Shown in pieces: positions 5,184 to 62,784 of a DNA stretch of 64,000 nt. Origin of the DNA: Acidobacteriota bacterium (GTDB lineage: Bacteria; Acidobacteriota; Vicinamibacteria; Vicinamibacterales; UBA2999); contig JADZCN010000114.1 in NCBI GenBank assembly GCA_020851565.1, positions 30,361-94,360 of the forward strand, read 5' to 3'. A program made the translations under genes and the position numbers. Within the stretch, counting starts at the first letter, position 1; each line of letters begins with the position of its first letter. The notes under the pieces were generated by a model. It saw nothing but the letters and a program-made list of their open reading frames with translations, did no database searches and was not told the origin of the DNA.

Positions 5184-5214
5184 TGCCGGCGCCCCGGCAG
5201 TATACTTCGCGCCA

Positions 5215-6498
5215 ATGAAGCGACTCCTCCTGGCCCCTGCGTTGGCTCTGTCTGTATCTGCGTCCATCTGCGTCCCATCTGCGGCCCAGGTATCTGCGCC
5301 ATCCACGGTTCTCATCCCCGACTCGGTGTTCGATGGAGAGCGCCTCCAGAAGGGATGGGTGGTCGTCATCCGCGGCGAGCGCATCGTCGCGGCGGGCCCC
5401 TCGGCGTCGGTGCCCACACCTGCGGGCGCGCAGACGCGGCGACTGTCCGGGTTGACGTTGATGCCGGGCATGATCGAGGGGCACTCGCACCTGCTGCTGC
5501 ACCCCTACAACGAGACGACGTGGAACGACCAGGTGCTGAAGGAGTCGGTGGCCTACCGAGTGGCTCGGGCCGTGACGCACGCGGAGCGGACGCTGATGGC
5601 CGGGGTCACCACGGTGCGCGACCTGGGCAGCGAAGGCGCGGGGTACGCGGACGTGGGGTTGAAACGCGCCATCGATGATGGCGTCGTGCCGGGACCGCGC
5701 ATGCTCGTCGCGGGGCCAGCGATGGTGGCCACGGGCAGTTACGGGCCGAAGGGCTTCGCCTCCGAGTGGCGGGTGCCGCAGGGGGCGGAAGAAGCGGACG
5801 GCCTCGAAGGCGTCGCGCGGGTGGCGCGCGACCAGATTGGGCACGGCGTGGACTTCATCAAGATCTACGCGGACTATCGCTGGGGCCCGAACGGTGAATC
5901 GCGGCCCACCTTCACGCTCGACGAGATCACCCGCATCGTCGAGGTGGCCAGGAGCAGCGGCCGGCCGGTCGTTGCCCACGCGGGGACGGTCGAGGGGATG
6001 CGCCGTGCCATCCTCGGCGGCGTCGAGACCGTCGACCACGGCGACGAGGGCACGCCGGAGATCTGGAAGCTGATGGTCGAGAAGGGCGTGGCCTATTGCC
6101 CGACGCTGGCCGCGCCGGACGCGACGGCGCAGTACGCCGGCTGGAAGAAGGGCGTGGAGCCCGAGCCGGAGCGCATTGCGAAGAAGCGCGAGACGTTCAA
6201 GGCGGCCCTGGCCGCGGGCGTGAAGATGTGTTTCGGCGGGGACGTCGGGGTCTACCCGCACGGCGACAACGTGCGCGAGCTGGAGATGATGGTGCAATGG
6301 GGCATGACGCCGCTGGCGGCCACGGTCGCGGCGACGTCAGGGAATGCGGCGCACTTCCACCTCGAGAACCGCGTCGGCCGCGTGCGCGAGGGATTGCTGG
6401 CGGACCTCATCGCCGTAGAGGGGGATCCGACGGCCGACATCGCCGCGCTCCGCCGTGTGAAGTTCGTGATGAAGAACGGCCGCGTCTACAAGCAGTGA
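5215..6498 (+). CDS. Amidohydrolase family protein (metal-dependent hydrolase), secreted
   Basis: In-frame part of ORF 4942..6498 from the ATG at 5215, with signal peptide MKRLLLAPALALSVSASICVPSAAQ. HxH metal motif (EGHSHLLLH); overall similarity to the second amidohydrolase at 13711..14943. TATACT lies 8 nt upstream of the ATG. Confidence 0.8.
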   Translation: MKRLLLAPALALSVSASICVPSAAQVSAPSTVLIPDSVFDGERLQKGWVVVIRGERIVAAGPSASVPTPAGAQTRRLSGLTLMPGMIEGHSHLLLHPYNETTWNDQVLKESVAYRVARAVTHAERTLMAGVTTVRDLGSEGAGYADVGLKRAIDDGVVPGPRMLVAGPAMVATGSYGPKGFASEWRVPQGAEEADGLEGVARVARDQIGHGVDFIKIYADYRWGPNGESRPTFTLDEITRIVEVARSSGRPVVAHAGTVEGMRRAILGGVETVDHGDEGTPEIWKLMVEKGVAYCPTLAAPDATAQYAGWKKGVEPEPERIAKKRETFKAALAAGVKMCFGGDVGVYPHGDNVRELEMMVQWGMTPLAATVAATSGNAAHFHLENRVGRVREGLLADLIAVEGDPTADIAALRRVKFVMKNGRVYKQ

Positions 6499-6580
6499 CA
6501 AAGAAACCACGAAGGCACGAAGAGAATCACGAAGGGCACGAAGTCAAGACCTCAAGCCCCAAGCCCCAAGCCCCAAGACC
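6499..6580. repeat. Composite array: AAAGAAACCACGAAG / CACGAAG units followed by GACCTCAAG / CCCCAAG units
   Basis: ACAAAGAAACCACGAAGGCACGAAGAGAATCACGAAGGGCACGAAGTCAAGACCTCAAGCCCCAAGCCCCAAGCCCCAAGACC. It is collinear with the element at 52327-52443 and sits between convergent gene ends (6498 and 6593). Confidence 0.9.
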
Positions 6581-6592
6581 TCATGGCCCCCT

Positions 6593-7774
6593 CTACACCA
6601 CGTTCAGCTCACCGCTGCGTGCGGCGGCGGTGAAGCGGTCGTGCGCGAAGGGGGAGAGGTCGAATTTCGGATCGCGCCCCGTCATCACGTCCGCCAGGAT
6701 GCGCCCCGCCGCCGGCGCGTGCTGGAAGCCGTGCCCGCTGAATCCGGCAATCGTGTAGAAGCCCTGGACGTCGGATGACGGCCCGATGATGGGGTTGTGG
6801 TCCGGCGTCATTTCGTAGAGGCCGGCCCACGCGTGCGAGACCGCGGCCTCGGCCATGGCGGGCAGCCGTCGCACGGCCACCTCGGTCACCTTCGGCAGGA
6901 AATCCCAGCGCACGGTGATGTCGAAGCCCGGCGTCTCGTCCGGGTCGCCCATGCCGAAGAGCAGCCCCGGCCCCTCGCGGTGGAAGTAGAACGTGCTCTC
7001 GAAGTCGATGACGAGCACCTTGGAGCGGGGCATGCGGCCTTCCCACTCCGGCGCGTCCCACGATCCTCCGCGCTCGGGCGTGGCGATGAAGATGTGGCGG
7101 CGCTCGGGCTCCACGGGCACGTCGACGCCGCAGTAGCGGCCGATGGCCTTCGCCCACGGGCCGGCGGCGTTCACGACGACCGGCGTGCTGATGTTGCCGC
7201 GCGAGGTCTGCACCTCGGCGATGCGGTGGTGGTCGAGCCTGATGCCGGTCACCTCGGTCTCCCGGACGATCTCCACCCCGCGTGCCTGCGCGCCCTTCGC
7301 GAAGCCCATCGTCACGCCGTTCGGATCCGCCACGCCATCGGCGGCGCACCACGCGGCGCCGCGCACGCCTTCGAGGTCGATGCCCGGCGCGATGGCGGCC
7401 GCTTCCCTCGGCGAGAGCCACTGCACGCCGACGCCCATCTCCTGCTGCAGGGCGATGTTGCGGAGGAACGTGGCCACGTTCGCCGTCTTCGACACGAGGA
7501 ACAGGTAGCCGTCCCGGTGGAAGTCGATCGGCGTGCCGACGCGCGCCTCGAAGTCGGCCATCATCGCGATGGACTCGATCGACAGGCGGATGTTCGCCGG
7601 GTGGGAGAACTGGTGCCGCACGCCGCCGGCGTTCTTGCCGGTGGAGCCTGTCGCCAGCTGCGCCTCGCGCTCGACGAGGACGACGTTGGTGACGCCGCGC
7701 TGGGCCAGGTGCCAGGCGAGGCTGCATCCCATGCAGCCGCCGCCCACGATGACGATGTCCGCCGTGTGTCGCAT
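6593..7774 (-). CDS. FAD-dependent oxidoreductase (DAO family; sarcosine/glycine/D-amino-acid oxidase-like)
   Basis: In-frame part of ORF 6593..8137 from the ATG at 7774. N-terminal Rossmann motif DIVIVGGGCMGCSLAWHLAQRG. TACAAT lies 6 nt upstream of the ATG. Confidence 0.8.
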   Translation of the reverse strand: MRHTADIVIVGGGCMGCSLAWHLAQRGVTNVVLVEREAQLATGSTGKNAGGVRHQFSHPANIRLSIESIAMMADFEARVGTPIDFHRDGYLFLVSKTANVATFLRNIALQQEMGVGVQWLSPREAAAIAPGIDLEGVRGAAWCAADGVADPNGVTMGFAKGAQARGVEIVRETEVTGIRLDHHRIAEVQTSRGNISTPVVVNAAGPWAKAIGRYCGVDVPVEPERRHIFIATPERGGSWDAPEWEGRMPRSKVLVIDFESTFYFHREGPGLLFGMGDPDETPGFDITVRWDFLPKVTEVAVRRLPAMAEAAVSHAWAGLYEMTPDHNPIIGPSSDVQGFYTIAGFSGHGFQHAPAAGRILADVMTGRDPKFDLSPFAHDRFTAAARSGELNVV

Positions 7775-7949
7775 GGATGAATTGTAGCGGCCCGACGGCA
7801 GCCGCGGCGTGGGGGGCACCTGCCACCGACGGTTCCGGGCCGCTCCGTGGCGATCGACCTCCCACGCCTCGGAAGGACCACGTCTCGCCAGTCTCGAGAG
7901 CCTGAGCCGATCCCGGGCTCCCTTCGGCCTAGAGAGCCAGGAGGCACCC

Positions 7950-13714: not shown

Positions 13715-14943
13715 CGCTGCCCGCCCCGGAACACCGTGCCGCCCCTCATGACGAAGGCCACCCGGGCGAGGGCATCGATGTCGGTGAGGGGGTTCCCGTC
13801 CACGGCCACGAGATCGGCCGAGAAGCCCGGGGCGATCGTGCCAATCTCCCTGCCGAGGCCGAGGGAGTCGGCCGAGACGGACGTGAGCGAACGGATCGCC
13901 TCCGCGGGCGACTGGCCGGACTTCACGCGCTCGAAGAGCTCGCGCATGTTCTGCCCGTGCGCGCCGGCCACGGCATCGGTGCCCATCACGATCTTCAGTC
14001 CGTGCGTCTTCAGCGCGGCCGAGAACATCGCGTCCTTCATCCCGAGGGCCTTCTCCATCGCGGCGAAGCCCTCCTCCGTGTAGTTGCCCACGCCGAGGAA
14101 GCGCGCCTTGTTCTCCAGGTAGTTCTGCGTCACCAGGCCGATGTTCGGATCGAAGAACATGCCGCGGTCCGCCAGCAGCTTCAGTGCCTCCGGCGTGGCC
14201 AGTCCGCCGTGTTCGACTACCGTGCAGCCCGCGCGCGCGGCGCGCATCATCGACTCGGGGCTGTGCGCATGGACCATGGACCGGAGGCCCTGCGCGCGCG
14301 CCTCGGCACAGACGGCATCGAGCTGCTCCTGGCTCAGCGTTGGGGTGCCGCCGTCGCGGATGCTGGCCGACGCGAAGATCTTCACCAGGTCGGCGCGGTC
14401 CGCCTTGCGCTGCCGCACCTGGGCGCGCAGCTCGTCGGGCGTGAGCCTGGCGTTGCTGACCTGTCCGAGCGAGGTGAGAATGCGCGGCCCCGGGAGCACC
14501 CCTCGCGCGATGGCGTCGCGGAGCGGCTTGTCGCGAGGCGAGCCCACGCTCTGGACGGTGGTGAAGCCCGCCATCAGGGTGACGTAGGCGTTCTCGGCCG
14601 CGTAGAGCGCGTTCTGCTCCGGCGGCTCGGGTCCGGTGTGGTAGCGGCCCTCGGCGTTGAAGTGCCAGTCGATGTGGACGTGGGTGTCGATGAAGCCGGG
14701 GAGCAGGGTCGCCTTGCCGAGGTCAATCGTGACCGGCGCGTCCGGCCCGCCGACGCGGACGATGCGGCCGTCCCGAATCGCGACGGTGTTGCCGGGGAGG
14801 ATGCGCCCGTCGCCGTTGATGATGGTCCCGGCCCGCAGCGTGACTTCGGTGGCGGGCCTGCCGGACTGCGCCGATACGGAGGCGGCGCTCGCGAGGAGGA
14901 TGGCGCTGAGCCGCAGGAGGTGCGAAGGGATGACGCGGAGCAT
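13711..14943 (-). CDS. Amidohydrolase family protein, secreted
   Basis: Signal peptide (LLRLSAILLASAASVSAQ), FIDTHVHIDWH metal motif, and paralog-like similarity to 5215..6498. Confidence 0.85.
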   Translation of the reverse strand: MLRVIPSHLLRLSAILLASAASVSAQSGRPATEVTLRAGTIINGDGRILPGNTVAIRDGRIVRVGGPDAPVTIDLGKATLLPGFIDTHVHIDWHFNAEGRYHTGPEPPEQNALYAAENAYVTLMAGFTTVQSVGSPRDKPLRDAIARGVLPGPRILTSLGQVSNARLTPDELRAQVRQRKADRADLVKIFASASIRDGGTPTLSQEQLDAVCAEARAQGLRSMVHAHSPESMMRAARAGCTVVEHGGLATPEALKLLADRGMFFDPNIGLVTQNYLENKARFLGVGNYTEEGFAAMEKALGMKDAMFSAALKTHGLKIVMGTDAVAGAHGQNMRELFERVKSGQSPAEAIRSLTSVSADSLGLGREIGTIAPGFSADLVAVDGNPLTDIDALARVAFVMRGGTVFRGGQR

Positions 14944-15150
14944 GGGATCCGCAGATTACACGGATTAGGCAGATTGGCGCCTGGGGATGTTCCTTGAGGG
15001 GGGGCGTGCCGGCGACGTGTGGCGAGGGCGGCCGCGCTCACGGCCAGGCCGCTCCCATCTTCGACCGCGTAGGACCAGCCGGCCCGACATCCGTGCCATC
15101 GGCGCAATCAGCGGATGAACCCCTCCGCATCATCGCTGTCCCTTCCGCAG

Positions 15151-17766
15151 TCATCTCTTCCGCGTCATCTCGACACGGAACAGCTCGTCCGCCGACTGCA
15201 GCGTGATGTTCTTCAGCCGCTCCGGGTAGTTCGCGGGTAGCCCGGCGAGGAACGCGCGCACCATGTTCGCCACCTCGGGCGAGCTGTGGCCGCCGAGCGT
15301 GGCGTCCAGCCACCGCTTGGGGAAGAAGATGTCGCCCGTCTTCTGGATCTCCCACAGCATCTCGAGGCTCGGCGTGACGTAGCCAGCCGACGCCCGCGCG
15401 CGCAGGGGATGGTGCAGGTAGTCGAGCCCTTCGAGCACCCACGGCTCGCGCCGGCGGTTGTTCACGTCCGCCAGCGAGCGAAACCAGGCGTCGCGCTCCC
15501 TTGGATCCGCTGAGAGCGCAGGCATGACGAACTGGAAGCGTCCCTTGCGATCCGGGTTCTCGATGCGGGTGAGCTGCTCGGCCAGGATGTCGCGCCAGCC
15601 GTCCACCTCCCGCACGGCCAGCTCCAGCGCCAGCGTCGTGTAGTCCGCTTCCGCGAGGGGCAGCCCCTGGACGACGTCCTTCTTCGCCCACACGCGGCGC
15701 AGCCACTCCACGGTGGGGCCGGTGATGGCCACGTTCCGCACGGCGCCGAACCACGCCGCCTTCTGGCTGGCTGTCTTGGCCCGGTCCAGGCCGTCCACGA
15801 GCAGCTTCTCGAAAGCTGCGGCCCGCTCCGCCCGCGCCTCCGCCGGCAGGAAGCGCCACCAGGCACGGCCGGCGTAGCCGAGCACTCTCGCCGTCATCTG
15901 CTCGTCGGTTTCCACCGGCAGCGCCGCGTCGGCCAGGTCCATGAAGGCCGCGGGCGCCAAACGCCCGTCGAGCAGGGCATCCCACAGCGTGACCCACGCG
16001 CTGCCGCGCGTCAGTGGATCCCTGATGGTTGGGAGCGACCGGGACAGGTGGACCAGCGAGGCCTCGTCCAGCTCGAAGCCGCCGTACGCCCAGCCCTCGC
16101 CGTTCGGCAGGACGAAGGCCGGTGCCGGCAGCCCCACGGCTTCCTTCACTTCGACACTGGCGCCGTCGAGCGCCACGTTCAACGTCGTCGTGCTGCCGGC
16201 GGCGTCGCCGAGCGCCACGCGCAGCTGTTGCGGCCACGCGCGCCCGCGGTTCCACGTGTCCCGCTGGCGGAACGCCAGGCGCGTGATGTGCCCGTCGCTG
16301 ACCGACAGCTCCGTCGTGACCGTGGGACGGCCGGGCTGCTCCACCCACACCTTGCTCCATGCCTGCAGGTCCACGGGCGTGCGCCGGTCGAGCACGTCGA
16401 TGAGATCGGTCCACGTGGCGTTGCCGAACTTGTGTGCGGCGAGGTACTCGCGCAGGCCGTCCCTGAACGACTCCTCGCCGAGCAGCGCCTCGAGGTGCCG
16501 CATCATCACGGGCGCCTTCTGGTAGATGATCGCGCCGTACATCTGGCCCGCCTCGTTCAGGTTCTCGAGGACCTGGCGGATGGGGTTCGCGCCCGGCGTG
16601 CGGTCCACCTCGTACGCCGCCGGGTAGTGCGCCAGCAGGAACCGCAGGTCGTGGTTCACCTCCGGGAACGAGGGGTTCACGATCTTGGCCGCCATGAAGT
16701 TGGCGAAGACCTCCTTCATCCACACGTCGTTGAACCAGCGCATGGTCACGAGGTCCCCGAACCACATGTGCGCCGTCTCGTGCGAGATGACCGACGCGCG
16801 CCCGAGCAGCTGGTTCTGCGTGGCCGACTCGTCCAGCATCAACCCCGAGGCGTTGTAGAGGATCTTGCCGGCGTGCTCCATCCCGCCGAACTGGAAGGCG
16901 GGAACGAGCACGAAGTCGAACTTGCCAAACGCGTAGGGGATGCCGGTGTAGCGCTCCATGTACTCGATGGCGGCCGCGTGCAGATCGAAGATGGCATCCC
17001 GGTTCCGCGCGACCTTGGCGGCATCGGTCTCGCGATGGAACATGCGGAAGGTGCGCCCGTTGCGCACCGCCGTCTCCACCTTGAAGTCGCCGACGACGAA
17101 GGAGAAGAGGTAGGTGGAGAGGGGTTCGGTCTCGCGGAACGCGATGCTGGCCACCTCGGCGTCCTGCGCGCGCTGGACCCGTGGCGCCGGGGAGCTGTCC
17201 GGCAAGGCGCCGCCGCCGGTCACCTCGGCGCCGTTGCTCACGGCCTTCCAGGCGCGCGGGTAGGTGAGGGTCAGCGTCCACCGCGCCTTCAGATCCGGCT
17301 GATCGAACACCGGAATCGCCTGCCGCGCCCGCGCCGGCACGAACAGCGCGTAGAGGAAATCCGCGCTCCGGTTCAGCGGGTCGTTGCCGGCGGTGAAGCC
17401 GATCCGAACCGCGTTCCGCCCGACCTTCAGGGCCGTCGTCGGAATGACGATGTGGCCGTTGGTGTAGTCGAAATGCGTGGCGGCACCGTTGGCGGTCACC
17501 GACTTCACGTGATCGCGGCTCGTCTCGAAGTCGATGACCAGCGGCTCGGTGTTGTCCTTCAACTCGAACGAGATGGTCGTGGTGCCGGTGATGGGATCGG
17601 CCAGCGCCTTCGGCACGGCGAGCGAGAGGTGGTATCGCAGATCCGCGATGACCGCCGCGCGTCGCGTCGCGACGTCCAGTGGCACGCCGGCCGCGGGTGT
17701 GGCGGTCTGCGCTGCCGCGGGGAGGGCCCATGCGCCCAGAGCTGCCAACAGGACTGCCATGCGCAT
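15151..17766 (-). CDS. M1 family aminopeptidase (aminopeptidase N-like zinc metallopeptidase)
   Basis: HETAHMWFGDLVTMRWFNDVWMKE matches HExxH-18-E. A GAMEN-like GGMEH lies upstream. Signal peptide MRMAVLLAALGAWALPAAAQ. ORF 15151..17781 is trimmed to the ATG at 17766 because the 17781 ATG lies in the CCATTG terminus of the repeat element. Confidence 0.85.
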   Translation of the reverse strand: MRMAVLLAALGAWALPAAAQTATPAAGVPLDVATRRAAVIADLRYHLSLAVPKALADPITGTTTISFELKDNTEPLVIDFETSRDHVKSVTANGAATHFDYTNGHIVIPTTALKVGRNAVRIGFTAGNDPLNRSADFLYALFVPARARQAIPVFDQPDLKARWTLTLTYPRAWKAVSNGAEVTGGGALPDSSPAPRVQRAQDAEVASIAFRETEPLSTYLFSFVVGDFKVETAVRNGRTFRMFHRETDAAKVARNRDAIFDLHAAAIEYMERYTGIPYAFGKFDFVLVPAFQFGGMEHAGKILYNASGLMLDESATQNQLLGRASVISHETAHMWFGDLVTMRWFNDVWMKEVFANFMAAKIVNPSFPEVNHDLRFLLAHYPAAYEVDRTPGANPIRQVLENLNEAGQMYGAIIYQKAPVMMRHLEALLGEESFRDGLREYLAAHKFGNATWTDLIDVLDRRTPVDLQAWSKVWVEQPGRPTVTTELSVSDGHITRLAFRQRDTWNRGRAWPQQLRVALGDAAGSTTTLNVALDGASVEVKEAVGLPAPAFVLPNGEGWAYGGFELDEASLVHLSRSLPTIRDPLTRGSAWVTLWDALLDGRLAPAAFMDLADAALPVETDEQMTARVLGYAGRAWWRFLPAEARAERAAAFEKLLVDGLDRAKTASQKAAWFGAVRNVAITGPTVEWLRRVWAKKDVVQGLPLAEADYTTLALELAVREVDGWRDILAEQLTRIENPDRKGRFQFVMPALSADPRERDAWFRSLADVNNRRREPWVLEGLDYLHHPLRARASAGYVTPSLEMLWEIQKTGDIFFPKRWLDATLGGHSSPEVANMVRAFLAGLPANYPERLKNITLQSADELFRVEMTRKR

Positions 17767-17778
17767 GGGCAAGACTAC

Positions 17779-25953: not shown

Positions 25954-25991
25954 GGCGACATTCTATCGATGGAGACGTGCCGGCACGCCGC

Positions 25992-27243: not shown

Positions 27244-27274
27244 TGGATCCCGGGTCCCAAAGTAAGCTGTCCCG

Positions 27275-27853
27275 ATGCTTCCCGCTGAACTGCAGGACTT
27301 GATCGACCAGGTCGACGCCGCCGAGGCCGACGCGCGGACGTTGGTCCGCGGGCTCGACGACCGCCAGGCGAACTGGCAGCCGGATGGTGGTCAAGCGTGG
27401 AGCATCGCGCAGTGCCTGGACCACCTCGCGCGCATGAACAGCTTCTACGTCGAGGCCGTCCTGCCGCGCGTGCGGCGGGCGGCCGAGGGCTCGGTGGCGC
27501 CCTTCGAGTCGCTGGCGCCGACGTGGCTCGGGCGCAAGTTCGTCGAGTCGATGGAGCCGCCCGTGACGCGCCGCTTCAAGGTCCCTGCCGCGCGCGTGGC
27601 GCCTGCCTCCGACATGCCGGTCGCCGACGCCCTGGCCGCCTTCGGCAACAGCCACACCCGCTACCGCGAGCTGGTGCGGCTGTGCGCGGGCCTCGATCCG
27701 AACCGCGTCCGCGTGCCCAACCCGTTCTTCAAATGGGTGTGGATGAGGGCCTCCACGGTGCTCCTCGTCATTCCCGCGCACGACCGTCGCCACCTCTGGC
27801 AGGCTCGCCGGGTTCTCGCGCGGCCCGACTTCCCGAGCACCGCTGTCCATTGA
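27275..27853 (+). CDS. DinB family protein
   Basis: 192 aa. WSIAQCLDHLARMNSFY and IPAHDRRHLWQARRVL His-containing helices are typical of the DinB/DinB_2 four-helix bundle. The stop TGA (27851-53) lies inside the CCATTGAGCG terminus of the repeat element. Confidence 0.75.
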   Translation: MLPAELQDLIDQVDAAEADARTLVRGLDDRQANWQPDGGQAWSIAQCLDHLARMNSFYVEAVLPRVRRAAEGSVAPFESLAPTWLGRKFVESMEPPVTRRFKVPAARVAPASDMPVADALAAFGNSHTRYRELVRLCAGLDPNRVRVPNPFFKWVWMRASTVLLVIPAHDRRHLWQARRVLARPDFPSTAVH

Positions 27854-32550: not shown

Positions 32551-32563
32551 GCCCGTGATCATA

Positions 32564-43172: not shown

Positions 43173-43287
43173 AACGTCGCCGTCGGATTCCTGCCAGGCT
43201 GGTCATTGTCGATGGCCGAGCTCTTCGCGGAACGGTGACGGTCCGGGGATGCTGCCCGGCGCGCAGCTGCGGTAGACTCGCCGCACC

Positions 43288-44484
43288 ATGCTGCCGCGCA
43301 TCCCTCGCCTTGCCGCCATCATCGCCGCCACCATTGCGGTAGCGCTGACCCTGTCGTCCACGGCTTTCACCCAGCGCGCACCCCGCGCGCGGGATCTGGG
43401 GGTCCCCTTCGACGGCACGCCCGGCGCCCTCAACGCCATCACCGACGTCGCAGGTGTGACCGTGGGCCACTCGACGATTATCTCTGGCGAAGGCGCGCTG
43501 CGGGTGGGGCAGGGGCCCGTGCGCACCGGCGTCACCGCCATCCTCCCACGCGGGCGCGACTCGATGGCCCGTCCCTCGTTCGCCGGCTGGTTCTCGCAGA
43601 ACGGGAACGGAGAGATGACGGGTACCACCTGGATCGAGGAGTCCGGTTTCCTCGAAGGCCCGGTCATGATCACCAACACGCACAGCGTGGGCGTGGTGCG
43701 GGACGCCGTCATCCAGTGGCGCATCAAGAGCGGGCCGCCTGATGCGTCAGGCTACTGGTGGTCGCTCCCGGTCGTCGCCGAGACGTACGACGGCGGGCTG
43801 AACGACATCAATGGCTTCCACGTGAAGGAGCGGCACGCGTTCGAGGCGCTGGACGGCGCGCGGGGCGGCGCCGTGCCCGAGGGGAACGTCGGGGGCGGGA
43901 CGGGGATGGTGTGCTACGGCTTCAAGGGCGGCATCGGCACCTCGTCGCGAGTCGTGAAGGGCGGCGACACGTCCTACACCATCGGCGTGCTGGTGCAGTC
44001 GAACTTCGGCCGGCGGTCGCAGTTGATGGTTGCAGGCGTTCCGGTGGGCCGCGAGATTCCTCAGCCGGCCCAGGCCGCCGTCCTCGACGATCCCGTGCGC
44101 GGCGATCTCGGCTCCATCATCATCGTCGTCGCCACCGACGCGCCACTGCTGCCGCACCAGCTGAAGCGCCTCGCTCGCCGTGCGACCATCGGCATGGGGC
44201 GGACAGGCGGCACATCGGGGAACGGGTCGGGCGACATCTTCATCGCGTTCTCGACGGCCAACGCCGACGCGTTCACGGGCTCGGGCCTCGCCACCGTGCA
44301 GATGGTCTCGAACGAGGAGATCAGCCCCATCTTCGACGCCACGGTCCAGGCCACCGAGGAAGCCATCATCAACGCGCTCGTCGCGGCCGAGACGATGACC
44401 GGTGCGGACAACCGCCGCGTGGAGCGCCTGCCGCACGATCGCCTGCGGGAGGCGCTGCGGAAGTACAACCGGCTGGCGCAGTAG
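43288..44484 (+). CDS. P1/S58 family peptidase (DmpA-type L-aminopeptidase/Ntn-hydrolase)
   Basis: 398 aa with signal peptide. NAITDVAGVTVGHST, RTGVTAILP, GNGEMTG and ITNTHSVG resemble DmpA/BapA family proteins. TAGACT lies 9 nt upstream of the ATG. Confidence 0.75.
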   Translation: MLPRIPRLAAIIAATIAVALTLSSTAFTQRAPRARDLGVPFDGTPGALNAITDVAGVTVGHSTIISGEGALRVGQGPVRTGVTAILPRGRDSMARPSFAGWFSQNGNGEMTGTTWIEESGFLEGPVMITNTHSVGVVRDAVIQWRIKSGPPDASGYWWSLPVVAETYDGGLNDINGFHVKERHAFEALDGARGGAVPEGNVGGGTGMVCYGFKGGIGTSSRVVKGGDTSYTIGVLVQSNFGRRSQLMVAGVPVGREIPQPAQAAVLDDPVRGDLGSIIIVVATDAPLLPHQLKRLARRATIGMGRTGGTSGNGSGDIFIAFSTANADAFTGSGLATVQMVSNEEISPIFDATVQATEEAIINALVAAETMTGADNRRVERLPHDRLREALRKYNRLAQ

Positions 44485-47164: not shown

Positions 47165-47500
47165 CTATGTGGGGTCGAGCACCTGTCCGACCGCCGTCAC
47201 GATGCGGTCCCACGACTTGCGCTCGGCGGCCAGCCGTTTCCGTCCCGCAGGCGTGATGTCGTACACCTTGGCGCGGCGGCCCTGCGCGGACTCGCCCCAC
47301 GCGCCGGCGATATAGCCCTCCTGCTCGAGGCGATGGAGCGCGGGGAAGAGCGACCCCGGCTTCACCACGAAGGTGCCGCGCGTGATCTGGGCGATGCGCT
47401 CCGAGACGGCGAGCCCGTGGCGCGGCTGGAGCTCGATGGTGCGGAGGATGAGGAGATCCAGCGTGCCCTTGAGCATGGCCGCGGGACGTTCCGGTGGCAT
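47165..47500 (-). CDS. PadR family transcriptional regulator
   Basis: In-frame part of ORF 47165..47698 from the ATG at 47500. LKGTLDLLILRTIELQPRHGLAVSERIAQITRGTFVVKPGSLFPALHRLEQEGYI is a canonical PadR winged helix. The gene ends 9 nt before the permease start. Confidence 0.9.
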   Translation of the reverse strand: MPPERPAAMLKGTLDLLILRTIELQPRHGLAVSERIAQITRGTFVVKPGSLFPALHRLEQEGYIAGAWGESAQGRRAKVYDITPAGRKRLAAERKSWDRIVTAVGQVLDPT

Positions 47501-47508
47501 AGGGCATC

Positions 47509-47538
47509 TATATAGAACATCTATACAAAAGTCGTCAA
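47509..47538 (-). promoter_or_regulatory. Putative sigma-70-type promoter of the PadR-permease operon (leaderless)
   Basis: Minus-strand reading is TTGACG (47538-47533), 18-nt spacer, TATATA (47514-47509), 8 nt, then ATG 47500. This is the only AT-rich patch locally. It contains the CTATATAG palindrome and a CATCTATA direct repeat. Confidence 0.45.
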
Positions 47539-47662: not shown

Positions 47663-48971
47663 GTCCCCGCTGTACCCCGAAGACGACCAGCCCGGCAAGC
47701 GCCCACGTCGTGCCGACCGCCTGGGCCAGCGTGCTGGCCTCGGCGATCACCCACAGTGTCACGAGGGCGCCAAGGACCGGCACCAGGTAGTGCAGCGACC
47801 GTGCCGTGCCCTTCTTCCGGACGACGAAGTACCCCACCACGGACGCGTGGAGCAGGGTGAAGGCCGCGAGCGCGCCGACGTCCACGATGGAGACCAGGAG
47901 ATCCAGCCCGTCCGCGCGGCGGGCGGCCCAGACTGACACGAACAGGGTCAGCGTGGCGGCGGTGACGAGCGCGGCGCGCGGCACGCCGTGGCGCTCGTCC
48001 ACACGCGCGAGCGCGCGCGGGAGCCGGCCATCGCGGGCCATGCCGAAGAGCAGTCGCGCCGCGGCCGCCTGCGCGGTCATGGCCGAGAAGGCAGGACCCA
48101 CGGCCTTGGTGATCGACATCACGGTGGCCAGCCACGGCGCGAGCGCCGCACGCGTGACATCGTAGAACACGGTGCCCTGCCGCTCGGGGTGCGCCGCCAG
48201 GTCGGCCGGGTCCATCGGGCTCAGCAGGCTGGCGAGCCAGGTCTGGAGGACGAAGAGCGTGCCAGCCACGGCGAGGCAGAACAGGATGGCGCGGCCCACC
48301 TGGCGGGAGCTGCCGGTGCTCTCTTCGGCGAAGCTGGCGATGGCGTCGAAGCCCAGGTACGACATCACCGCCACCGAGATGGCGCCGATGACGATCGAGA
48401 GGTTGAAGGCGCCCAGGCCCGTGAGCGGTGATGTCCACGGGCGCGCGGGCCCGTCTGCGGAGAGGACGAAGAGGGCCATCGCGACGAACAGGGCGAGCAC
48501 TGCGATCTCGGCGACGAGCACGACCAGGCCGACGCGCGCGGCCACCCCGACACCCGCCAGGTTCAACGTCGTGGTCACGACGAAGGCGGCGAGTGTGAAT
48601 ACCCAGGCGGGCACGGCAGGGACGAGGGCGTGGAGCGCGATGCCCGAGAAGAGGTAGGCGACAGACGGGATCAGCAGGTAGTCGAGCATCGCCAGCCAGC
48701 CCGCCAGGAACCCGGCCGGCCGGCCCATCCCCTCCGAGGCGTAGGCGAACACCGAGCCCGCGTGCGGGACGACGCCCGACATCTCGGCGTACGACCACGC
48801 CGTGAACGCCATCGCCAGCGTCGCCAGCAGGTACACGAGCGCCACGGCGCCGCCCGTGCGCGCGTCGAGCACGCCGAAGACACCGACGGGCGCGAGCGGG
48901 CCGATGAAGAGCAGCCCGTAGACGATGAGGTCTCGAAGGGTGAGGGTGCGCCGGAGCGCGGGCGTGGCCAA
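47655..48971 (-). CDS. APC superfamily amino acid/polyamine permease
   Basis: 438 aa with about 12 predicted TM segments. N-terminus LTLRDLIVYGLLFIGPLAPVGVFG is typical of APC transporters. The start codon appears to be TTG (48971), so the start is uncertain. Confidence 0.75.
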   Translation of the reverse strand: MATPALRRTLTLRDLIVYGLLFIGPLAPVGVFGVLDARTGGAVALVYLLATLAMAFTAWSYAEMSGVVPHAGSVFAYASEGMGRPAGFLAGWLAMLDYLLIPSVAYLFSGIALHALVPAVPAWVFTLAAFVVTTTLNLAGVGVAARVGLVVLVAEIAVLALFVAMALFVLSADGPARPWTSPLTGLGAFNLSIVIGAISVAVMSYLGFDAIASFAEESTGSSRQVGRAILFCLAVAGTLFVLQTWLASLLSPMDPADLAAHPERQGTVFYDVTRAALAPWLATVMSITKAVGPAFSAMTAQAAAARLLFGMARDGRLPRALARVDERHGVPRAALVTAATLTLFVSVWAARRADGLDLLVSIVDVGALAAFTLLHASVVGYFVVRKKGTARSLHYLVPVLGALVTLWVIAEASTLAQAVGTTWALAGLVVFGVQRGRS

Positions 48972-49005
48972 GTCGGCGCATTATATCGGCGTGGAGGCAG
49001 GCGCG

Positions 49006-49924: not shown

Positions 49925-49927
49925 TTC

Positions 49928-52465: not shown

Positions 52466-53266
52466 TCAATCCACGGCGCAGGGGGCGCCGGCGAGGAACG
52501 CCAGGACGATGAGCGGGTTGCGGCCGCGGCGGGTGAAGCCGTAGCTCGTCCCGCGCGGGACGACGGCGAAGCTGCCGGCCCCGAGGCTCACGTCGCGCCC
52601 GTCCAGGCGGAGTGTGCCGTCCCCGCCGATCACGTACAGCATGGCGTCGGCCGATTCGTGCTGGCGATCGGCCCAGGCCTCGCGCACCTGCCAGACGATG
52701 GCCTGGCCCACACCGCTGCACCCGACAATGTCCTCCTTGTGGGCTTCGCGGTTCGAGATGAAGTTCCGCTCGATGTAGTCGGGCAGCGCCATGGTCTTCG
52801 GCGCCGAGGGCGGAGGCAACGTGAACTCCGACTTCGCCGGCTCGGGCGCCGGCGGCGGCGGGGGCGGGGGCGGCGCGGGCGCGGCGTTGAGCGTCACCGT
52901 CATGGTGGGCGCCGGCTGCCCGGCACGCCAGACCAGTTCCTTCTCGAAGGTGTGGTACCCCTCACGCTCGAAACGGATGCGATGCGTGCCGGCCGGGACG
53001 TTCAGCAGGCGCAGTCGTCCCTCGTTCGTGGTGGTGCCGCTCCGATCCGTCGTTCCAATGAGCGAGACGTTGACGCCTTCGAGGACGGCGCCGACGCTGT
53101 CGGTTACTGTCACCGACAGGGTGGTCCCCGCGGGCGCCGGCGCCTTCCGGGCAGGCCGGGCCTGCGTGGTCGGCTTGGCGGTTGCGGGCGCCTGCGCGAA
53201 CGCAGGGAGATGGGCAGGCTGGGCGGGGGCCGCCTGCAGCCACGTCAGCAGGAGCAGAGTGACCAT
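52466..53266 (-). CDS. Secreted carboxypeptidase-regulatory-like domain + cupin domain protein
   Basis: 266 aa. The CarboxypepD_reg-like beta-sandwich is LSVTVTDSVGAVLEGVNVSLIG..GRLRLLNVPAGTHRIRFEREGY. A Pro-rich linker follows. The C-terminal cupin is ADAMLYVIGGDGTLRLDGRDVSLGAGSFAVVPRGTSY. Confidence 0.7.
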   Translation of the reverse strand: MVTLLLLTWLQAAPAQPAHLPAFAQAPATAKPTTQARPARKAPAPAGTTLSVTVTDSVGAVLEGVNVSLIGTTDRSGTTTNEGRLRLLNVPAGTHRIRFEREGYHTFEKELVWRAGQPAPTMTVTLNAAPAPPPPPPPPAPEPAKSEFTLPPPSAPKTMALPDYIERNFISNREAHKEDIVGCSGVGQAIVWQVREAWADRQHESADAMLYVIGGDGTLRLDGRDVSLGAGSFAVVPRGTSYGFTRRGRNPLIVLAFLAGAPCAVD

Positions 53267-53281
53267 GGGGGATGGTACTAC

Positions 53282-54807: not shown

Positions 54808-56545
54808 AATACTTCCAGCTCTTCAAATCCGCCCCAGGCGGTGCGGTCTTCTCCATCCGCTCCACCGCCTTGGGGATGAACATCTGGTGATAGCGGAGGC
54901 GCGAGAGGGCATTGGGCCGCGTCGGATCGCCATTCCAGCAGTGCTCCGCGCGATCGCCGTAGGCCACTTCGCCGTTGTAGTAAGGCTTCGTCGTGGACTC
55001 GAGGAACTGCTCGGCGAGGTAGACCGCGTTGTTCAGGTAGTAGTTGTCCATGTCGCCGACATAGAGGTGGAGCTTGCCTTCGAGCTTTGCGCCGAGCCCC
55101 TTCTCCCAGTCACGCTGAAGGATGTGCACGAGATCGAAGTTCTCGCGCCAGTACTCGGCGACCTTCTTGTCGATCACGCCGGTGCGCTTGTCCCAGATGC
55201 GTGCGGGGTAGCCGTCTGGACCGACGGGTGAATACGTGGCCTCCCACACGTCCCACTGCTGGCCCGAGCGCGTCCTCGTGCCCAGCACCAGCTCCAGCCG
55301 GTTCATCTCCTCGAGCGTGGCGTCCACGTGCCCGAGGTAGTTGCGATGTCCGGGTCGGGCCGTCTTCTTCCAGTCCCCCTCGACGAAGTACGCATTGCGG
55401 TCCTCGTAGAGGTTCACGACGGTGTAGGCGCGGAAGTCGATGGGATCCGGGCAGGCGATGTAGGCGCCGTTGAAGTCGTCGGGGTAGAAGACCTGGGCCG
55501 CCATGGCCTCCCACCCGCCGGTGGATCCGCCGTACATGAAGCGCGCCCAGCCCTGCCCGATGCCGCGGTACTTCTTCTCGATGTAGGGCAGCAGTTCCTT
55601 GACGATGGCGTCGCCCCACGGGCCGGCGTTGGCGGAGTTCACGGCGTAGCTGTCGTCGTAGAAGGGCGTCGGGTGCTGGATCTCGATGACGATGGCGCGC
55701 GGGAAGCCCGGGCCGGTCCACTCCTTGTAGAACTGGTGCGCGTACTGCTGCTGGATGCGGTTGTAGCCCGCGAGGTTGAAGCGCGCGGCGAAGTCCGGTT
55801 TCAAGTTGGGGTCCGGCGGCTCCGGGCGGAAGCCGGTGAAGGTGTACGGGAAGTGCCCGTGGTCGATGAAGAGCGGGTAGCGCGCGTCCGGATGCGTGTC
55901 CCACCCCTCGGGCAGCAGGACGTTGGCGCCAAGGTGCATGGGACGGCCCCAGAACTTCGTCAGCAGCGCGCTCTGGATGCGCTCGTGGCGGATGTACTTC
56001 GTGTCGGTTGGCGGCGGAATGGGTGGAATCACCTTGTCCAGCGTGATCTCCACGGCCTCGCCGTTCGGGTCCACCCGGACTTCGACCGGCGTGCTGTACA
56101 GATTGCCGGGCGCCTGGTTCCACTGCTGGCCCTCGCCGCGATCCATCGGCAGCTTCACCGTGAAGCCGTCGGCCCGCTTGAAGGTCTCGTACTTGTGCAG
56201 GAGCGCCTGCACCGTGTAGGTGCCCGCCGGGATCTGCGAGATGCTGGCAAGGGGAAAGCCTGGCACCGCGGGATCGATCACGACCGACGTCGTGCCCTTC
56301 CACCCCTCCACGTCCACGCCGAAGATCTGCTGCGCGTTGGCGCCAGTGCCGATCTGGAAGCGAGGCTCGCCGCGCCGGCCATCCTTTGCCAGCATCAGGA
56401 GCAGGCGCCCGTCCTCGACACCCGGGTGTCCCGGAGGAAGGTTCACGAAGAAGAGGAGCGAACCGGGCTGTGCGGCGCGCGTGTCCATCCACGCAACCGT
56501 GCAGGCCAGTGCCAGGGCGAGCACAAACATTCGAGCGCGTTGCAT
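54806..56545 (-). CDS. Secreted alpha/beta-hydrolase-like putative esterase
   Basis: In-frame part of ORF 54806..56629 from the ATG at 56545, with signal peptide MQRARMFVLALALACTVAWMDTRAAQ. GxSxG-like nucleophile elbow in FMYGGSTGGWEAM. TACACT lies 7 nt upstream of the ATG. The family assignment is tentative. Confidence 0.6.
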   Translation of the reverse strand: MQRARMFVLALALACTVAWMDTRAAQPGSLLFFVNLPPGHPGVEDGRLLLMLAKDGRRGEPRFQIGTGANAQQIFGVDVEGWKGTTSVVIDPAVPGFPLASISQIPAGTYTVQALLHKYETFKRADGFTVKLPMDRGEGQQWNQAPGNLYSTPVEVRVDPNGEAVEITLDKVIPPIPPPTDTKYIRHERIQSALLTKFWGRPMHLGANVLLPEGWDTHPDARYPLFIDHGHFPYTFTGFRPEPPDPNLKPDFAARFNLAGYNRIQQQYAHQFYKEWTGPGFPRAIVIEIQHPTPFYDDSYAVNSANAGPWGDAIVKELLPYIEKKYRGIGQGWARFMYGGSTGGWEAMAAQVFYPDDFNGAYIACPDPIDFRAYTVVNLYEDRNAYFVEGDWKKTARPGHRNYLGHVDATLEEMNRLELVLGTRTRSGQQWDVWEATYSPVGPDGYPARIWDKRTGVIDKKVAEYWRENFDLVHILQRDWEKGLGAKLEGKLHLYVGDMDNYYLNNAVYLAEQFLESTTKPYYNGEVAYGDRAEHCWNGDPTRPNALSRLRYHQMFIPKAVERMEKTAPPGADLKSWKY

Positions 56546-56575
56546 GCGGCGGAGTGTAGCATTCAGTGGCGAACA

Positions 56576-60908: not shown

Positions 60909-61886
60909 CTACTTCGAGCCTCCCAGCAAAGCCATCAGCGCCCACGCGGTCGTGGACAACCGCTGTGTCGCGCTCTCCGCGGCGCCCCCACGCATGGTCG
61001 CGGGCCAGCTGCCATCGGCGCGCTGCTGCGCCGCCAGATACGCGCGCCCCTTCGCGATGGCGTCGCGGAGCTCCTCGGCGCGGTACGTGGAGCGGGCCAG
61101 CCGTGGATCGGTCTCCAGTTCCTGCAGCGCGATGAGCACGAGCGCGGTGTCGAAGACCGTGGCTGACTCCGCGCCAGGTTCGGCGCCCCATCCGCCGCTC
61201 TCGCGCTGCGCGAAGCGCAGCATGTTCAGCAGCTTCGCCCGCTGCTTGTCGGCCATCACGTCCGACGTGACGCCGAGGCCGAGGACGATGCCGGCGGCGT
61301 CGGAGACGGTGGAGGCCTCTGCCGTGCGAGTCCAGCGGTCCGTCTGTGCCACGGCGAAGTCGTCGGGCTCGCGCCCGGACGCGATGAGCGCCGTGCGGGC
61401 CATCCAGGTGGCGACGGCCGTGCCCCAGGTGAGTGGCGTGTGCGGCGGGTCGGACGCGTCGGGTACCCAGGACCCGTCCGGCATCTGGTCGGCCAGGATG
61501 ATCTTCGCCGCCTCGACGAGCGCCGGCGACGGGTTCAGGTCCTTTTCCGCGGCCGCGGCCAGCGCCGACACGAACTGCAGCCGCATCAGCACCTCATCGT
61601 CGCCGTGCCCCTTGTTGGTGTTCCAATCTGCCGGGGCCTCGAGGAAGGCGCGTGCGTCCTTCAGCGCGTCGCCGACGTCGTGGCCGCGATGTGCGGCCAT
61701 GAACAGCGCCCGTGTGGCGTCGCCGGTGTGGTGGCAGGAGGCGCAGCCGTTCCCGGCGCGCCACGCCGGGACCTGCTTCAGGAGGTACGCGACGGCTTTC
61801 GCCTCGGGTGTCGCGGGTGCCTGGGCCTGGGGGAGGGCCAGAGCCGCCACCCAGAGCGCGGCGGCGGCGGCGAAGAAGGACCTCAT
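60909..61886 (-). CDS. Secreted prenyltransferase/squalene-cyclase-repeat-like protein with a CxxCH haem-c-type motif
   Basis: 325 aa with signal peptide MRSFFAAAAALWVAALALPQAQA. NGCASCHH (CxxCH) lies near the N-terminus. Repeated DGSW/GGWG elements (QMPDGSWVPD, RESGGWGAEPG, QRADGSWPAT) are typical of alpha/alpha-toroid terpenoid-cyclase-like repeats. The stop TAG abuts the MCO ATG with 0-nt spacing. Confidence 0.65.
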   Translation of the reverse strand: MRSFFAAAAALWVAALALPQAQAPATPEAKAVAYLLKQVPAWRAGNGCASCHHTGDATRALFMAAHRGHDVGDALKDARAFLEAPADWNTNKGHGDDEVLMRLQFVSALAAAAEKDLNPSPALVEAAKIILADQMPDGSWVPDASDPPHTPLTWGTAVATWMARTALIASGREPDDFAVAQTDRWTRTAEASTVSDAAGIVLGLGVTSDVMADKQRAKLLNMLRFAQRESGGWGAEPGAESATVFDTALVLIALQELETDPRLARSTYRAEELRDAIAKGRAYLAAQQRADGSWPATMRGGAAESATQRLSTTAWALMALLGGSK

Positions 61887-61920
61887 GGAGAGATGGTACG
61901 CGAATCCGATGCCCTGTGAT

Positions 61921-62008
61921 TATCTGCGTCCATCTGCGTCCATCTGCGGCTTCTGCGTCGATCTGCGGCCATCTGCGTCCCTCTGCGGCTTCCGCGTCCC
62001 TCTGCGGC
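61921..62008. repeat. About 9 x 9/10-bp array CATCTGCGTC / CATCTGCGGC / CCTCTGCGGC
   Basis: TATCTGCGTCCATCTGCGTCCATCTGCGGCTTCTGCGTCGATCTGCGGCCATCTGCGTCCCTCTGCGGCTTCCGCGTCCCTCTGCGGCCC. It lies in the divergent gap between 61886 (-) and 62032 (+). Confidence 0.95.
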
Positions 62009-62031
62009 CCCGGCGTTACAATCAGCGTCGC

Positions 62032-62784
62032 ATGTCCCGCCCCTTTCGCGCCGGCCAGTCCGTTGAAGATCACTGCCGGCAGTGCCACGAAGACCGCATG
62101 CACACCGTCATCGTCGTGGACGCTGCATCGCAACCTCTGCGTGTGCGATGCGACTACTGCGGGAGCGAGCACAACTATCGTGGAGGGCCGAGGACGGCGA
62201 TTCCGGGTCGGGAGTCGGGAGTCGGCAGTCGGGAGTCGGGTGGTGGGAGTAGTCGGGAGTCGGACGTCGGGGGGCGGGAGTCTGGCAGTTGGCTCTCACC
62301 CACGGCGACCGGGGCGACGGCAGGGTACTCGCGGCCGGCGCCACTCGAGCCCCTCGTCAGCGAGCGTGAGCGGTATTACCAGGAACCAGGGATCAGGGAT
62401 CAGGGATCAGGGGGCGGGGATCAGGAGGCAGGTGCAGACATGTCAGCCGTTGATTTCGAGACCCTGCTGCGCCGGGTGATCCGGGAGGAGACCGGGCTCA
62501 CGCCGGTGGCGCCCGCCGAGAAGTGGCGTGGCGGCGACCTCGTTCTTCGTCCGGGCAAGCCCGGCGTGCAGGAGAAGAGCTGGCCCATCGAGACGTTCTT
62601 CCACAAGGTCGTCATGCTGCGGAACCGGCTGCGCACGCTGGAGCAGCAGGTGAACGCGTCGGATCTGCCGGACGACCAGAAGGTGAAGATCCAGAGCTAC
62701 ATCACGGGGTGTTATGGGTCGCTGACCAGCTTCAACGTGCTGTTCGCGGACGAGGAGGACAAGTTCGTGGGCTCCGGGGAATAG
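62032..62784 (+). CDS. Hypothetical protein: N-terminal CxxC..CxxC zinc-ribbon, repeat-encoded low-complexity linker, conserved-looking C-terminal domain
   Basis: In-frame C-terminal part of ORF 60580..62784 from the ATG at 62032; TACAAT lies 9 nt upstream. CRQCHEDRMHTVIVV..VRCDYCGSEH forms the zinc ribbon. The linker (GRESGVGSRESGGGSSRESDVGGRESGS..PGIRDQGSGGGDQE) is encoded by the arrays. An alternative independent start is ATG 62440 (AGGAGG 11 nt upstream) for the C-terminal 114 aa. Confidence 0.55.
   Translation: MSRPFRAGQSVEDHCRQCHEDRMHTVIVVDAASQPLRVRCDYCGSEHNYRGGPRTAIPGRESGVGSRESGGGSSRESDVGGRESGSWLSPTATGATAGYSRPAPLEPLVSERERYYQEPGIRDQGSGGGDQEAGADMSAVDFETLLRRVIREETGLTPVAPAEKWRGGDLVLRPGKPGVQEKSWPIETFFHKVVMLRNRLRTLEQQVNASDLPDDQKVKIQSYITGCYGSLTSFNVLFADEEDKFVGSGE
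62205..62420. repeat. GGGAGTCG 8-mer array (62205-62292) and GGGATCAG 8-mer array (62385-62420) inside an ORF
   Basis: CGGGTCGGGAGTCGGGAGTCGGCAGTCGGGAGTCGGGTGGTGGGAGTAGTCGGGAGTCGGACGTCGG..GGGAGTC, and CAGGGATCAGGGATCAGGGATCAGGGGGCGGGGATCAGG. GTCGGGAGTCGGG also follows both TPM gene stops (57596-57610 and 58608-58621). Confidence 0.9.

Follow-up and report, generated by a model that had tools for sequence, protein, structure and literature searches.

In the 64-kb stretch of DNA analyzed here (the window), which belongs to a Vicinamibacterales (Acidobacteriota) metagenome-assembled genome from an uncultured soil acidobacterium and has a GC content of 70%, TANNNT hexamers stand a few nucleotides upstream of the start codons of about a third of the genes (13 to 14 of ∼42, or ∼31%, a small-sample estimate). 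We consider it highly probable that these hexamers are −10 boxes of housekeeping promoters that abut the start codons of transcript-leading genes and give rise to leaderless mRNAs. Among the genes able to head a transcript, the share is roughly 40%.

From the motif with its position, statistics, and conservation, and from the correctness of the start codons, we infer where transcription would begin and how the mRNAs would be translated. The putative −10 elements (consensus TAnAAT, minimal form TANNNT) would be recognized by a housekeeping sigma-70-family factor and would lie 5 to 9 nt 5′ of the start codon in genes that open a transcription unit, in promoters without a recognizable −35 or extended −10 element. 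RNA polymerase would initiate on the A of the ATG at gaps of 6 to 7 nt (the gap being the nucleotides between hexamer end and start codon) and 1 to 3 nt earlier at gaps of 8 to 9 nt; with a 6-nt gap, +1 would therefore be the A of the ATG itself. The resulting mRNAs would carry neither a usable 5′ untranslated region (UTR) nor a Shine-Dalgarno (SD) box and would enter leaderless translation, with ribosomes that carry initiator tRNA recognizing an AUG at the 5′ end. Gaps of 8 to 10 nt may produce leaders of 1 to 4 nt instead of strictly leaderless mRNAs. The remaining genes have GGAGG-type SD boxes or lie inside operons.

The original prediction had listed 11 hexamer-ATG pairs as signs of transcription starting at or just before the ATG. 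A direct reading of the window found all 11 coordinates and strands to be exact, with gaps of 6 to 9 nt throughout. Ten of the 11 hexamers have the claimed TA-start/T-end form; the box at 47514-47509 is not one of these, because TATATA ends in A, and this PadR gene is thus a weak case among the examples. A check of the whole window added four further cases, with starts at 14943, 17766, 48971, and 53266, and the gaps of the TANNNT boxes in the window range from 5 to 9 nt with a mode of 6 (Table 1).

Table 1. Hexamers and associated start codons in the window
Hexamer	Position	Gap (nt)	Start codon	Span	Strand	Gene product and remarks
TATACT	5201-5206	8	ATG 5215	5201..5217	+	Amidohydrolase, N-terminal signal peptide; exact PGAP protein MCC7180295.1
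TACAAT	7786-7781	6	ATG 7774	7772..7786	-	FAD-dependent oxidoreductase, DAO domain from residue 6; exact 393-aa product on 9 Logan contigs
TAATCT	14958-14953	9	ATG 14943	14941..14958	-	Amidohydrolase; sole start candidate of the ORF; added here
TAGTCT	17777-17772	5	ATG 17766	17764..17777	-	M1 aminopeptidase, signal peptide; PGAP MCC7180302.1 is the 871-aa product; added here
TAGAAT	25965-25960	6	ATG 25953	25951..25965	-	Tandem universal stress protein, Usp domain from residue 4
TAAGCT	27263-27268	6	ATG 27275	27263..27277	+	DinB-family protein
TATGAT	32563-32558	7	ATG 32550	32548..32563	-	PLP-dependent aminotransferase
TACAAT	38952-38957	6	ATG 38964	38952..38966	+	Cys-tRNA(Pro) deacylase (YbaK family); alternative ATG 38934 with GAGGA
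TAGACT	43273-43278	9	ATG 43288	43273..43290	+	S58/P1 peptidase, signal peptide; sole start candidate
TATATA	47514-47509	8	ATG 47500	47498..47514	-	PadR regulator; weak: final A, alternative start 47476 (103-aa product)
TATAAT	48985-48980	8	TTG 48971	48969..48985	-	APC-family permease; added here
TACCAT	53277-53272	5	ATG 53266	53264..53277	-	CarboxypepD_reg and cupin protein; sole start candidate; added here
TACACT	56558-56553	7	ATG 56545	56543..56558	-	Secreted esterase-like protein, signal peptide
TACCAT	61898-61893	6	ATG 61886	61884..61898	-	Terpene cyclase/mutase-like protein, signal peptide; divergent partner of 62032
TACAAT	62017-62022	9	ATG 62032	62017..62034	+	Conserved zinc-ribbon protein, function unknown; homologue N termini align ≤3 residues from ATG

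TANNNT occurs 88 times on both strands of the window (128,000 strand positions), and 14 of these occurrences lie 5 to 9 nt before one of the 41 curated starts that served as the gene set for statistics, compared with 0.39 expected from the remaining upstream positions (Poisson P, ∼1e−17). A count that is independent of the choice of starts gave the same picture: TANNNT followed after 5 to 9 nt by ATG is found 15 times in the whole window, 13 times at a gene start, and the control patterns of equal composition ANNNTA, ATNNNT, TTNNNA, TNNNTA, TANNNA, and AANNNT give 1 to 3 occurrences each in the same count. The motif is strand specific, and the boxed genes start with ATG in 13 of 14 cases and with TTG in 1. 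For an approximation of a genome-wide test, the window was taken together with ∼0.5 Mb of related genomes, and the enrichment upstream of start codons that the original prediction had anticipated was found there as well: 251 other genes of relatives carry the motif 47 times versus ∼6 expected, with the peak at a gap of 6 nt. This enrichment is specific to ATG (47 ATG candidate starts versus 5 GTG and 2 TTG), and the boxed genes of related loci have 129 ATG, 12 GTG, and 1 TTG start codons. That the ATGs had merely been picked for a preceding TA...T hexamer was a fair concern, with examples chosen by eye and one of them departing from the motif, but 13 of the 15 occurrences fall at gene starts, and this count, the Poisson probability, the flat controls, and the replication in 61 orthologous loci and in the 251 independent genes of relatives make chance or selection bias a negligible prospect; we rejected it on the exhaustive window count and the relatives.

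The starts themselves appear to be right. For 10 of the 11 originally listed ATGs, NCBI (PGAP) records and/or Logan gene calls include the exact protein, and for the eleventh, 62032, aligned homologues support the start, so that the ATGs are not an artifact of choice. At boxed genes, a signal peptide or Pfam domain sets in no more than a few residues after the ATG; together with the identical public gene calls and the homologue alignments, these features suggest that the protein N terminus coincides with the promoter-proximal AUG. The agreement with PGAP is partly circular because its gene finder models the same motif; the Logan and JGI calls, the homology evidence, and the start-independent motif count lessen this concern. 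The coding-potential maximum was discarded as an unbiased start caller: it overshoots N termini with signal peptides or low complexity and missed 5215 and 62032, and therefore candidate-start sets and the start-independent motif count were used.

The boxes could still be genuine promoters while the annotated ATGs are not the true starts, or while the main promoter lies further upstream, so that the mRNAs would be leadered and translated from a downstream start or by a non-SD mechanism and the ATG-proximal box would be of secondary or incidental importance. Several observations lean this way. In the PadR gene, another ATG follows 8 codons after the first, and JGI and Logan call the PadR product from 47476, not 47500; in the deacylase gene, an ATG in the same frame ten codons earlier is preceded by a GAGGA box and preferred by some pipelines; PGAP starts the permease 15 codons downstream of 48971; and for several ATGs the coding-potential maximum falls slightly downstream. 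Against this, the claimed ATGs coincide with the beginnings of signal peptides, Pfam domains, and the Rossmann GxGxxG motif, homologue N termini align to the ATG, the ATG is the sole candidate in the ORFs of 14943, 43288, and 53266, and nothing would then explain why the motif peaks at a constant 6 nt from the ATG; we therefore regard this explanation as quite unlikely. The permease N terminus at 48971 is conserved in one relative, and its TTG, an unusual start for leaderless translation, counts against the leaderless reading of that gene. The alternative ATG of the M1 aminopeptidase gene at 17781 is chosen by no pipeline.

SD boxes are distributed as a leaderless architecture would predict. 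With GGAG, GAGG, or AGGA at 4 to 12 nt upstream of the start as the criterion, no SD box is found at the 11 starts for which its absence had been claimed or at any of the 14 boxed starts, and SD boxes are present at 15 other genes of the window. The genes cited earlier for their clear SD boxes (7950, 28338, 33737, 39568, 42953, 47155, and 59202) all seven have GGAGG or AGGAG 5 to 10 nt upstream. None of the 9 window genes with a codirectional gap of <40 nt, and hence classed as operon internal, is boxed, compared with 14 of 32 potential first genes. In related loci the two classes do not separate cleanly, the corresponding numbers being 7 of 40 and 115 of 373 (Fisher P = 0.10), with crude gene calls and classification and two orthologue families dominating the set. 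An Rfam scan of the window revealed no riboswitch or leader RNA.

Positions 4 and 5 of the hexamer, which the motif leaves free, carry A in 62% and 70% of 61 promoters, compared with a background of 16%, a strong bias that resembles TATAAT and gives the consensus TAnAAT; in the related-loci set, position 5 is A in 79%. Upstream of the hexamer, the 61 promoters have no information content and no −35 or extended −10 consensus, with TTG at the proper −35 spacing in 6 and TGn in 5 of them. Conservation of the −35 element is poor in actinobacterial promoters, too.

These features also bear on a reading in which the hexamer acts on RNA, as a non-SD translation signal in a longer 5′ UTR (an A/U-rich ribosome or S1 site), comparable to the non-SD ribosome-binding sites in genomes of GeneMarkS-2 group B. 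The very GC-rich leaders contain no A/T-rich patch other than the motif, which occupies the SD position, and the 7 boxed genes among the 40 that are apparently operon internal in related loci would fit such a signal. However, the fixed T1, A2, and T6 with A-favoring positions 4 and 5 form a DNA-level sigma-70 −10 pattern, TTNNNA, ATNNNT, and ANNNTA of matched composition are not enriched, the box is missing from all 9 operon-internal window genes, canonical GGAGG is used elsewhere in these genomes, and the enrichment is limited to ATG, all of which makes an RNA-level signal very unlikely. Taking the hexamers as −10 boxes of leaderless transcripts, the predictions of transcription from or just before the ATG that were tested on the sequence came out as expected, less cleanly so for the operon-internal genes of related loci.

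A bolder version, which we think improbable, would be a minimal Vicinamibacterales architecture in which a bare TAnAAT fused to the ATG suffices without a −35 element, the box stands directly against the fast-evolving short-period tandem-repeat arrays or terminator hairpins that fill the intergenic spacers, and the spacer arrays (or their binding proteins) supply or tune upstream promoter function. If so, changes in repeat copy number would cause rapid heritable shifts in the expression of leaderless genes.

The window pattern, as far as its sequence goes, is the known leaderless architecture with the published TANNNT signature and is real but ordinary (PMC3160421, PMC6028130). In GeneMarkS-2 group C genomes, TANNNT lies ∼6 to 8 nt from starts (PMC6028130; bioRxiv 10.1101/2022.07.25.500264). 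Like the window, this group (Actinobacteria such as Mycobacterium tuberculosis and Streptomyces, and Deinococcus-Thermus) combines boxes 6 to 8 nt from first-gene starts, no SD box, and mostly AUG with SD-led genes in the same genome and a weak or absent −35 element, and ∼25 to 50% of transcription units are affected; it differs in phylum, and the gap range here reaches 9 to 10 nt. Deinococcus deserti likewise has a −10 box immediately 5′ of the ATG and a large share of leaderless mRNAs, which account for 167 of the 262 genes whose transcription start sites were mapped (de Groot et al. 2014, as cited in PMC6028130); there the architecture was demonstrated by dRNA-seq and proteogenomics, whereas in the window it is predicted from sequence.

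The leaderless interpretation is not new for the phylum, having been predicted in 2011 for three of three Acidobacteria genomes with a TA-like signal and the TANNNT consensus (Zheng et al. 2011, BMC Genomics 12:361; PMC3160421), with 9.7 to 19.4% of genes affected versus the ∼31% estimated from the small sample of the window. A paper on transcription start site mapping in Acidobacteria, including Vicinamibacterales, was not found in the literature searched. The three genomes of the 2011 prediction are reportedly those of Acidobacterium, Koribacter, and Solibacter and not of Vicinamibacteria.

Our sequence and comparative data thus support the view that a dominant, essentially uncultured soil lineage, the Vicinamibacterales, probably uses leaderless expression for a large share of its transcription units, which adds a data point on the phylum distribution of leaderless initiation and leaves the current mechanistic understanding unchanged. 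Gene starts in Vicinamibacterales metagenome-assembled genomes need correct calling, and SD-biased gene finders would mis-start these genes; promoters of this lineage would be predictable from a single hexamer, and expression constructs could be designed to match.

Conservation of individual boxes was followed in two gene families. In orthologues of the aminotransferase gene (32550), 54 of 61 loci keep TANNNT 5 to 12 nt before the same ATG within unrelated, unalignable flanks, and this retention indicates that the box is under purifying selection. The sequence of one locus (L001) becomes homologous to the window, at 92% nucleotide identity, exactly 1 nt before the ATG, and the box is still there as TATCAT with a gap of 7 nt. 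Orthologues of 62032 from metagenomes carry an exact TANNNT at 5 to 12 nt in 30 of 78 loci, with approximate start assignment, and many other loci of this family have boxes with one mismatch, such as CACAAT and GATCAT; the family appears to give weaker support than that of the aminotransferase. In the window, the terminator-like hairpin of the gene upstream of the aminotransferase ends 2 nt from the TATGAT box.

All 11 pairs of a TANNNT hexamer and a downstream ATG in the original prediction (ATGs at 5215, 7774, 25953, 27275, 32550, 38964, 43288, 47500, 56545, 61886, and 62032) were exact in coordinates and strand, with gaps of 6 to 9 nt between the end of the hexamer and the start codon. Ten of the hexamers fit the motif; the one at 47514-47509, upstream of the PadR regulator gene, reads TATATA, with A in place of the final T. 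The reported lack of a Shine-Dalgarno (SD) sequence held for every one of these starts (no GGAG, GAGG, or AGGA 4 to 12 nt upstream), whereas the seven genes cited for contrast (7950, 28338, 39568, 42953, 47155, 59202, and 33737) all carry GGAGG or AGGAG 5 to 10 nt upstream. The GC content is 68 to 73% throughout the window. The observation is confirmed, and the list of cases has grown from 11 to 14 or 15, one of them weak. The permease N-terminus translated from the TTG at 48971, MATPALRRTLTLRDL, is conserved in the relative P0174, and PGAP places the start on an ATC that lies 15 codons downstream; the TTG may serve as a leaderless UUG start, or the annotation may be wrong.

Additional starts with a -10-like hexamer and intergenic tandem arrays in the window (further arrays are present)
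Feature	Position	Strand	Hexamer or repeat unit	Remark
Start	14943		TAATCT	Exact product on record in Logan or PGAP
Start	17766		TAGTCT	Exact product on record in Logan or PGAP
Start	53266		TACCAT	Exact product on record in Logan or PGAP
Start (TTG)	48971	-	TATAAT (perfect), 48985-48980	Gap 8 nt; APC-family permease
Array	5053-5183	+	GAACCTCCGTGCTTT (15 nt)	8.7 copies
Array	26586-26711
Array	27204-27242
Array	32617-32701
Array	47571-47662
Array	52396-52445
Array	53280-53411	reverse complement	GAACCTCCGTGCTTT (15 nt)	8.7 copies
Array	54643-54808
Array	56574-56641
Array	58627-58687
Array	61922-62009
Array	62881-62945

TANNNT is scarce in the window as a whole, with 88 instances on both strands; the frequencies of the TA dinucleotide and of T would predict 191, and base composition 435. 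Its density is 0.25% of intergenic versus 0.05% of genic strand positions. Such scarcity is consistent with spurious promoters being selected against, and a hexamer that does occur is therefore highly informative. Fourteen of the 88 lie 5 to 9 nt before one of 41 curated starts, versus 0.39 expected from the rate over all other upstream positions (Poisson p ~1e-17). When counted free of annotation, TANNNT-N5-9-ATG occurs 15 times in the window, 13 times at a gene start; for six controls of matched composition, the count was 1 to 3 each. The claim that the arrangement is not accidental is borne out by these counts, and chance is excluded as an explanation.

The starts themselves might have been mis-assigned, or dominant promoters might lie farther upstream, a possibility that we consider quite unlikely. 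Genes were called by log-likelihood of codon usage, with high-GC3 ORFs as the training set, and the checks of their starts were chosen to be independent of the hexamer. Signal peptides open the proteins translated from 5215, 43288, 56545, and 61886; the FAD Rossmann motif of the 7774 protein stands at its very N-terminus, and the first residue of the Usp, DAO, and DinB domains lies between 4 and 12. Exact-sequence look-ups matched 10 of the 11 ATGs to public gene calls (NCBI PGAP and/or Logan and JGI). The PGAP proteins, numbered MCC7180293 to MCC7180334 on their 132-kb contig, belong to a metagenome-assembled "Acidobacteria bacterium" genome. For the protein from 62032, the same look-up returned no record; it has ∼8,000 homologues at 98 to 100% coverage, and the 14 that were aligned have N-termini no more than 3 residues from the ATG. 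Two starts are ambiguous: the PadR protein has 111 amino acids from 47500 in PGAP and 103 from 47476 in JGI and Logan, and for 38964 some pipelines favor ATG 38934, which is in frame and has a GAGGA box. Leaderless-type starts are already called by PGAP, whose gene finder is GeneMarkS-2.

The arrangement is conserved in relatives. Orthologues of the aminotransferase gene (31288-32550) were found in 80 species-level genomes, almost all of them metagenome-assembled and from Vicinamibacterales or Acidobacteriota (top match, 97% protein identity), and 54 of the 61 bacterial loci in which the orthologous ATG could be placed carry TANNNT (TATCAT, TATGAT, TACAAT, or TAGAAT) 5 to 12 nt before it, mainly at gaps of 6 to 10 nt. 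The sequence flanking these 54 boxes cannot be aligned, and the control patterns stay flat. In the closest relative (locus L001), 92% nucleotide identity with the window starts exactly 1 nt before the ATG (32550; L001 position 3000); the upstream DNA is unrelated and the neighborhood rearranged, yet TATCAT stands at a 7-nt gap. Locus L065 appears to hold a leadered version of the gene that would be leaderless in its relatives, with the box (TTACAAT) ∼23 nt before the ATG and an AGGAGA SD box in between (∼2700-2745). Among 251 other genes on the related loci, TANNNT has a sharp maximum at a gap of 6 nt, with 47 instances versus ∼6 expected at gaps of 5 to 10 nt; the enrichment is restricted to ATG candidates (GTG candidates, 5 instances; TTG candidates, 2). 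Across 61 non-redundant promoters, A fills the free positions 4 and 5 of the hexamer in 62% and 70% of cases (background, 16%), which gives the consensus TAnAAT of a sigma-70 -10 box; neither a -35 nor a TGn signal can be seen in this set. Support is weaker in the metagenome loci of the 62032 orthologue family, where 30 of 78 have an exact TANNNT and many others have boxes with one mismatch, e.g., CACAAT or GATCAT.

A separate motif, TTGGACGG-N12-17-AGGGTTG, was seen at locus positions ∼2950 to 2990 in aminotransferase loci L005, L006, L007, L020, L026, L028, L039, L043, L051, L053, L069, and others, at a variable distance of ∼10 to 45 nt upstream of the -10 box; the window's own copy is without it. 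Its spacing resembles that of ECF-sigma-type promoters or of a regulator site.

The hexamer might also be a non-SD signal acting at the RNA level, which we regard as very improbable. In the curated table of 42 genes, 13 have a -10 box (14 if the PGAP start 17766 is taken for the M1 aminopeptidase), 15 an SD box, and 14 neither. Each box-bearing gene of the window is preceded by a divergent gene or by 34 nt or more of intergenic sequence, and none of the nine genes with a co-directional gap below 40 nt has a box; promoters should be distributed in this way, ribosome-binding signals should not. ATG is the start codon of 13 of the 14 box genes. With crude gene calls on the related loci, the two classes did not separate cleanly, boxes preceding 7 of 40 apparently operon-internal versus 115 of 373 first genes (Fisher p = 0.10). 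Upstream of the PadR gene (47505-47530, minus strand), the TATATA lies inside a direct repeat, TATAGATG-ttcta-TATAGATG, which may be an autoregulatory operator overlapping PadR's own promoter.

A -10 hexamer spans positions -12 to -7, so that a 6-nt gap places +1 on the A of the ATG; with gaps of 7 to 9 nt, transcription would start on this A or 1 to 3 nt upstream. Very probably, housekeeping-sigma promoters are fused to the start codons, giving leaderless or near-leaderless mRNAs whose 5'-terminal AUG would be translated without an SD sequence. The original reading, widespread leaderless transcription, is supported by the motif and its position, the statistics, conservation, SD absence, and the validity of the starts, all of which are shown; where transcription starts and how the mRNAs are translated is inferred. 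At the sequence level, the pattern matches the signature already published for leaderless genes in bacteria. TA-like signals of consensus TANNNT ∼12 nt before starts, counting from the first T, were described by Zheng et al. 2011 (PMC3160421), who predicted leaderless genes in three of three Acidobacteria genomes (9.7 to 19.4% of genes). In "group C" of GeneMarkS-2 (PMC6028130), a Pribnow box lies 6 to 8 nt from the starts of operon first genes and 25 to 50% of transcripts are leaderless; the typical group C promoter consensus is TANNNT (MetaGeneMark-2, bioRxiv 10.1101/2022.07.25.500264). Our literature search found no paper on experimental transcription start site mapping in Acidobacteria or Vicinamibacterales. 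Vicinamibacterales would be a newly added lineage with an already known architecture.

Outside the main finding, the most unusual sight in the window is its short-period (7 to 15 nt) tandem arrays, which occupy 25% of intergenic versus 1.4% of genic bases. They occur both in promoter-containing and in convergent 3'-3' spacers and frequently abut putative leaderless -10 boxes, ending less than 20 nt away. The array unit varies among close relatives (GGGATCA/GGGAGCA in the window versus GTGAGAA in locus L002), indicating fast turnover; a literature search for Vicinamibacter and tandem repeats gave no match. The two GAACCTCCGTGCTTT arrays lie directly upstream of unlinked candidate leaderless promoters, those of 5215 (amidohydrolase) and 53266 (CarboxypepD_reg/cupin protein); they could bind a common regulator or belong to a family of mobile repeats. 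At 18354-19234, a 439-bp unit is present in two tandem copies of 93% identity, coding on the minus strand (genes 17812-18648 and 18656-21022). Either the protein has repeated domains or an internal duplication took place recently. The conserved protein encoded at 62032-62784 (plus strand) has no Pfam match; a zinc ribbon (CxxC...CxxC) at the N-terminus is followed by a low-complexity linker that varies and by a C-terminal domain of ∼110 amino acids that is almost invariant, and the homologues of this protein come mainly from soil metagenomes and Acidobacteriota.
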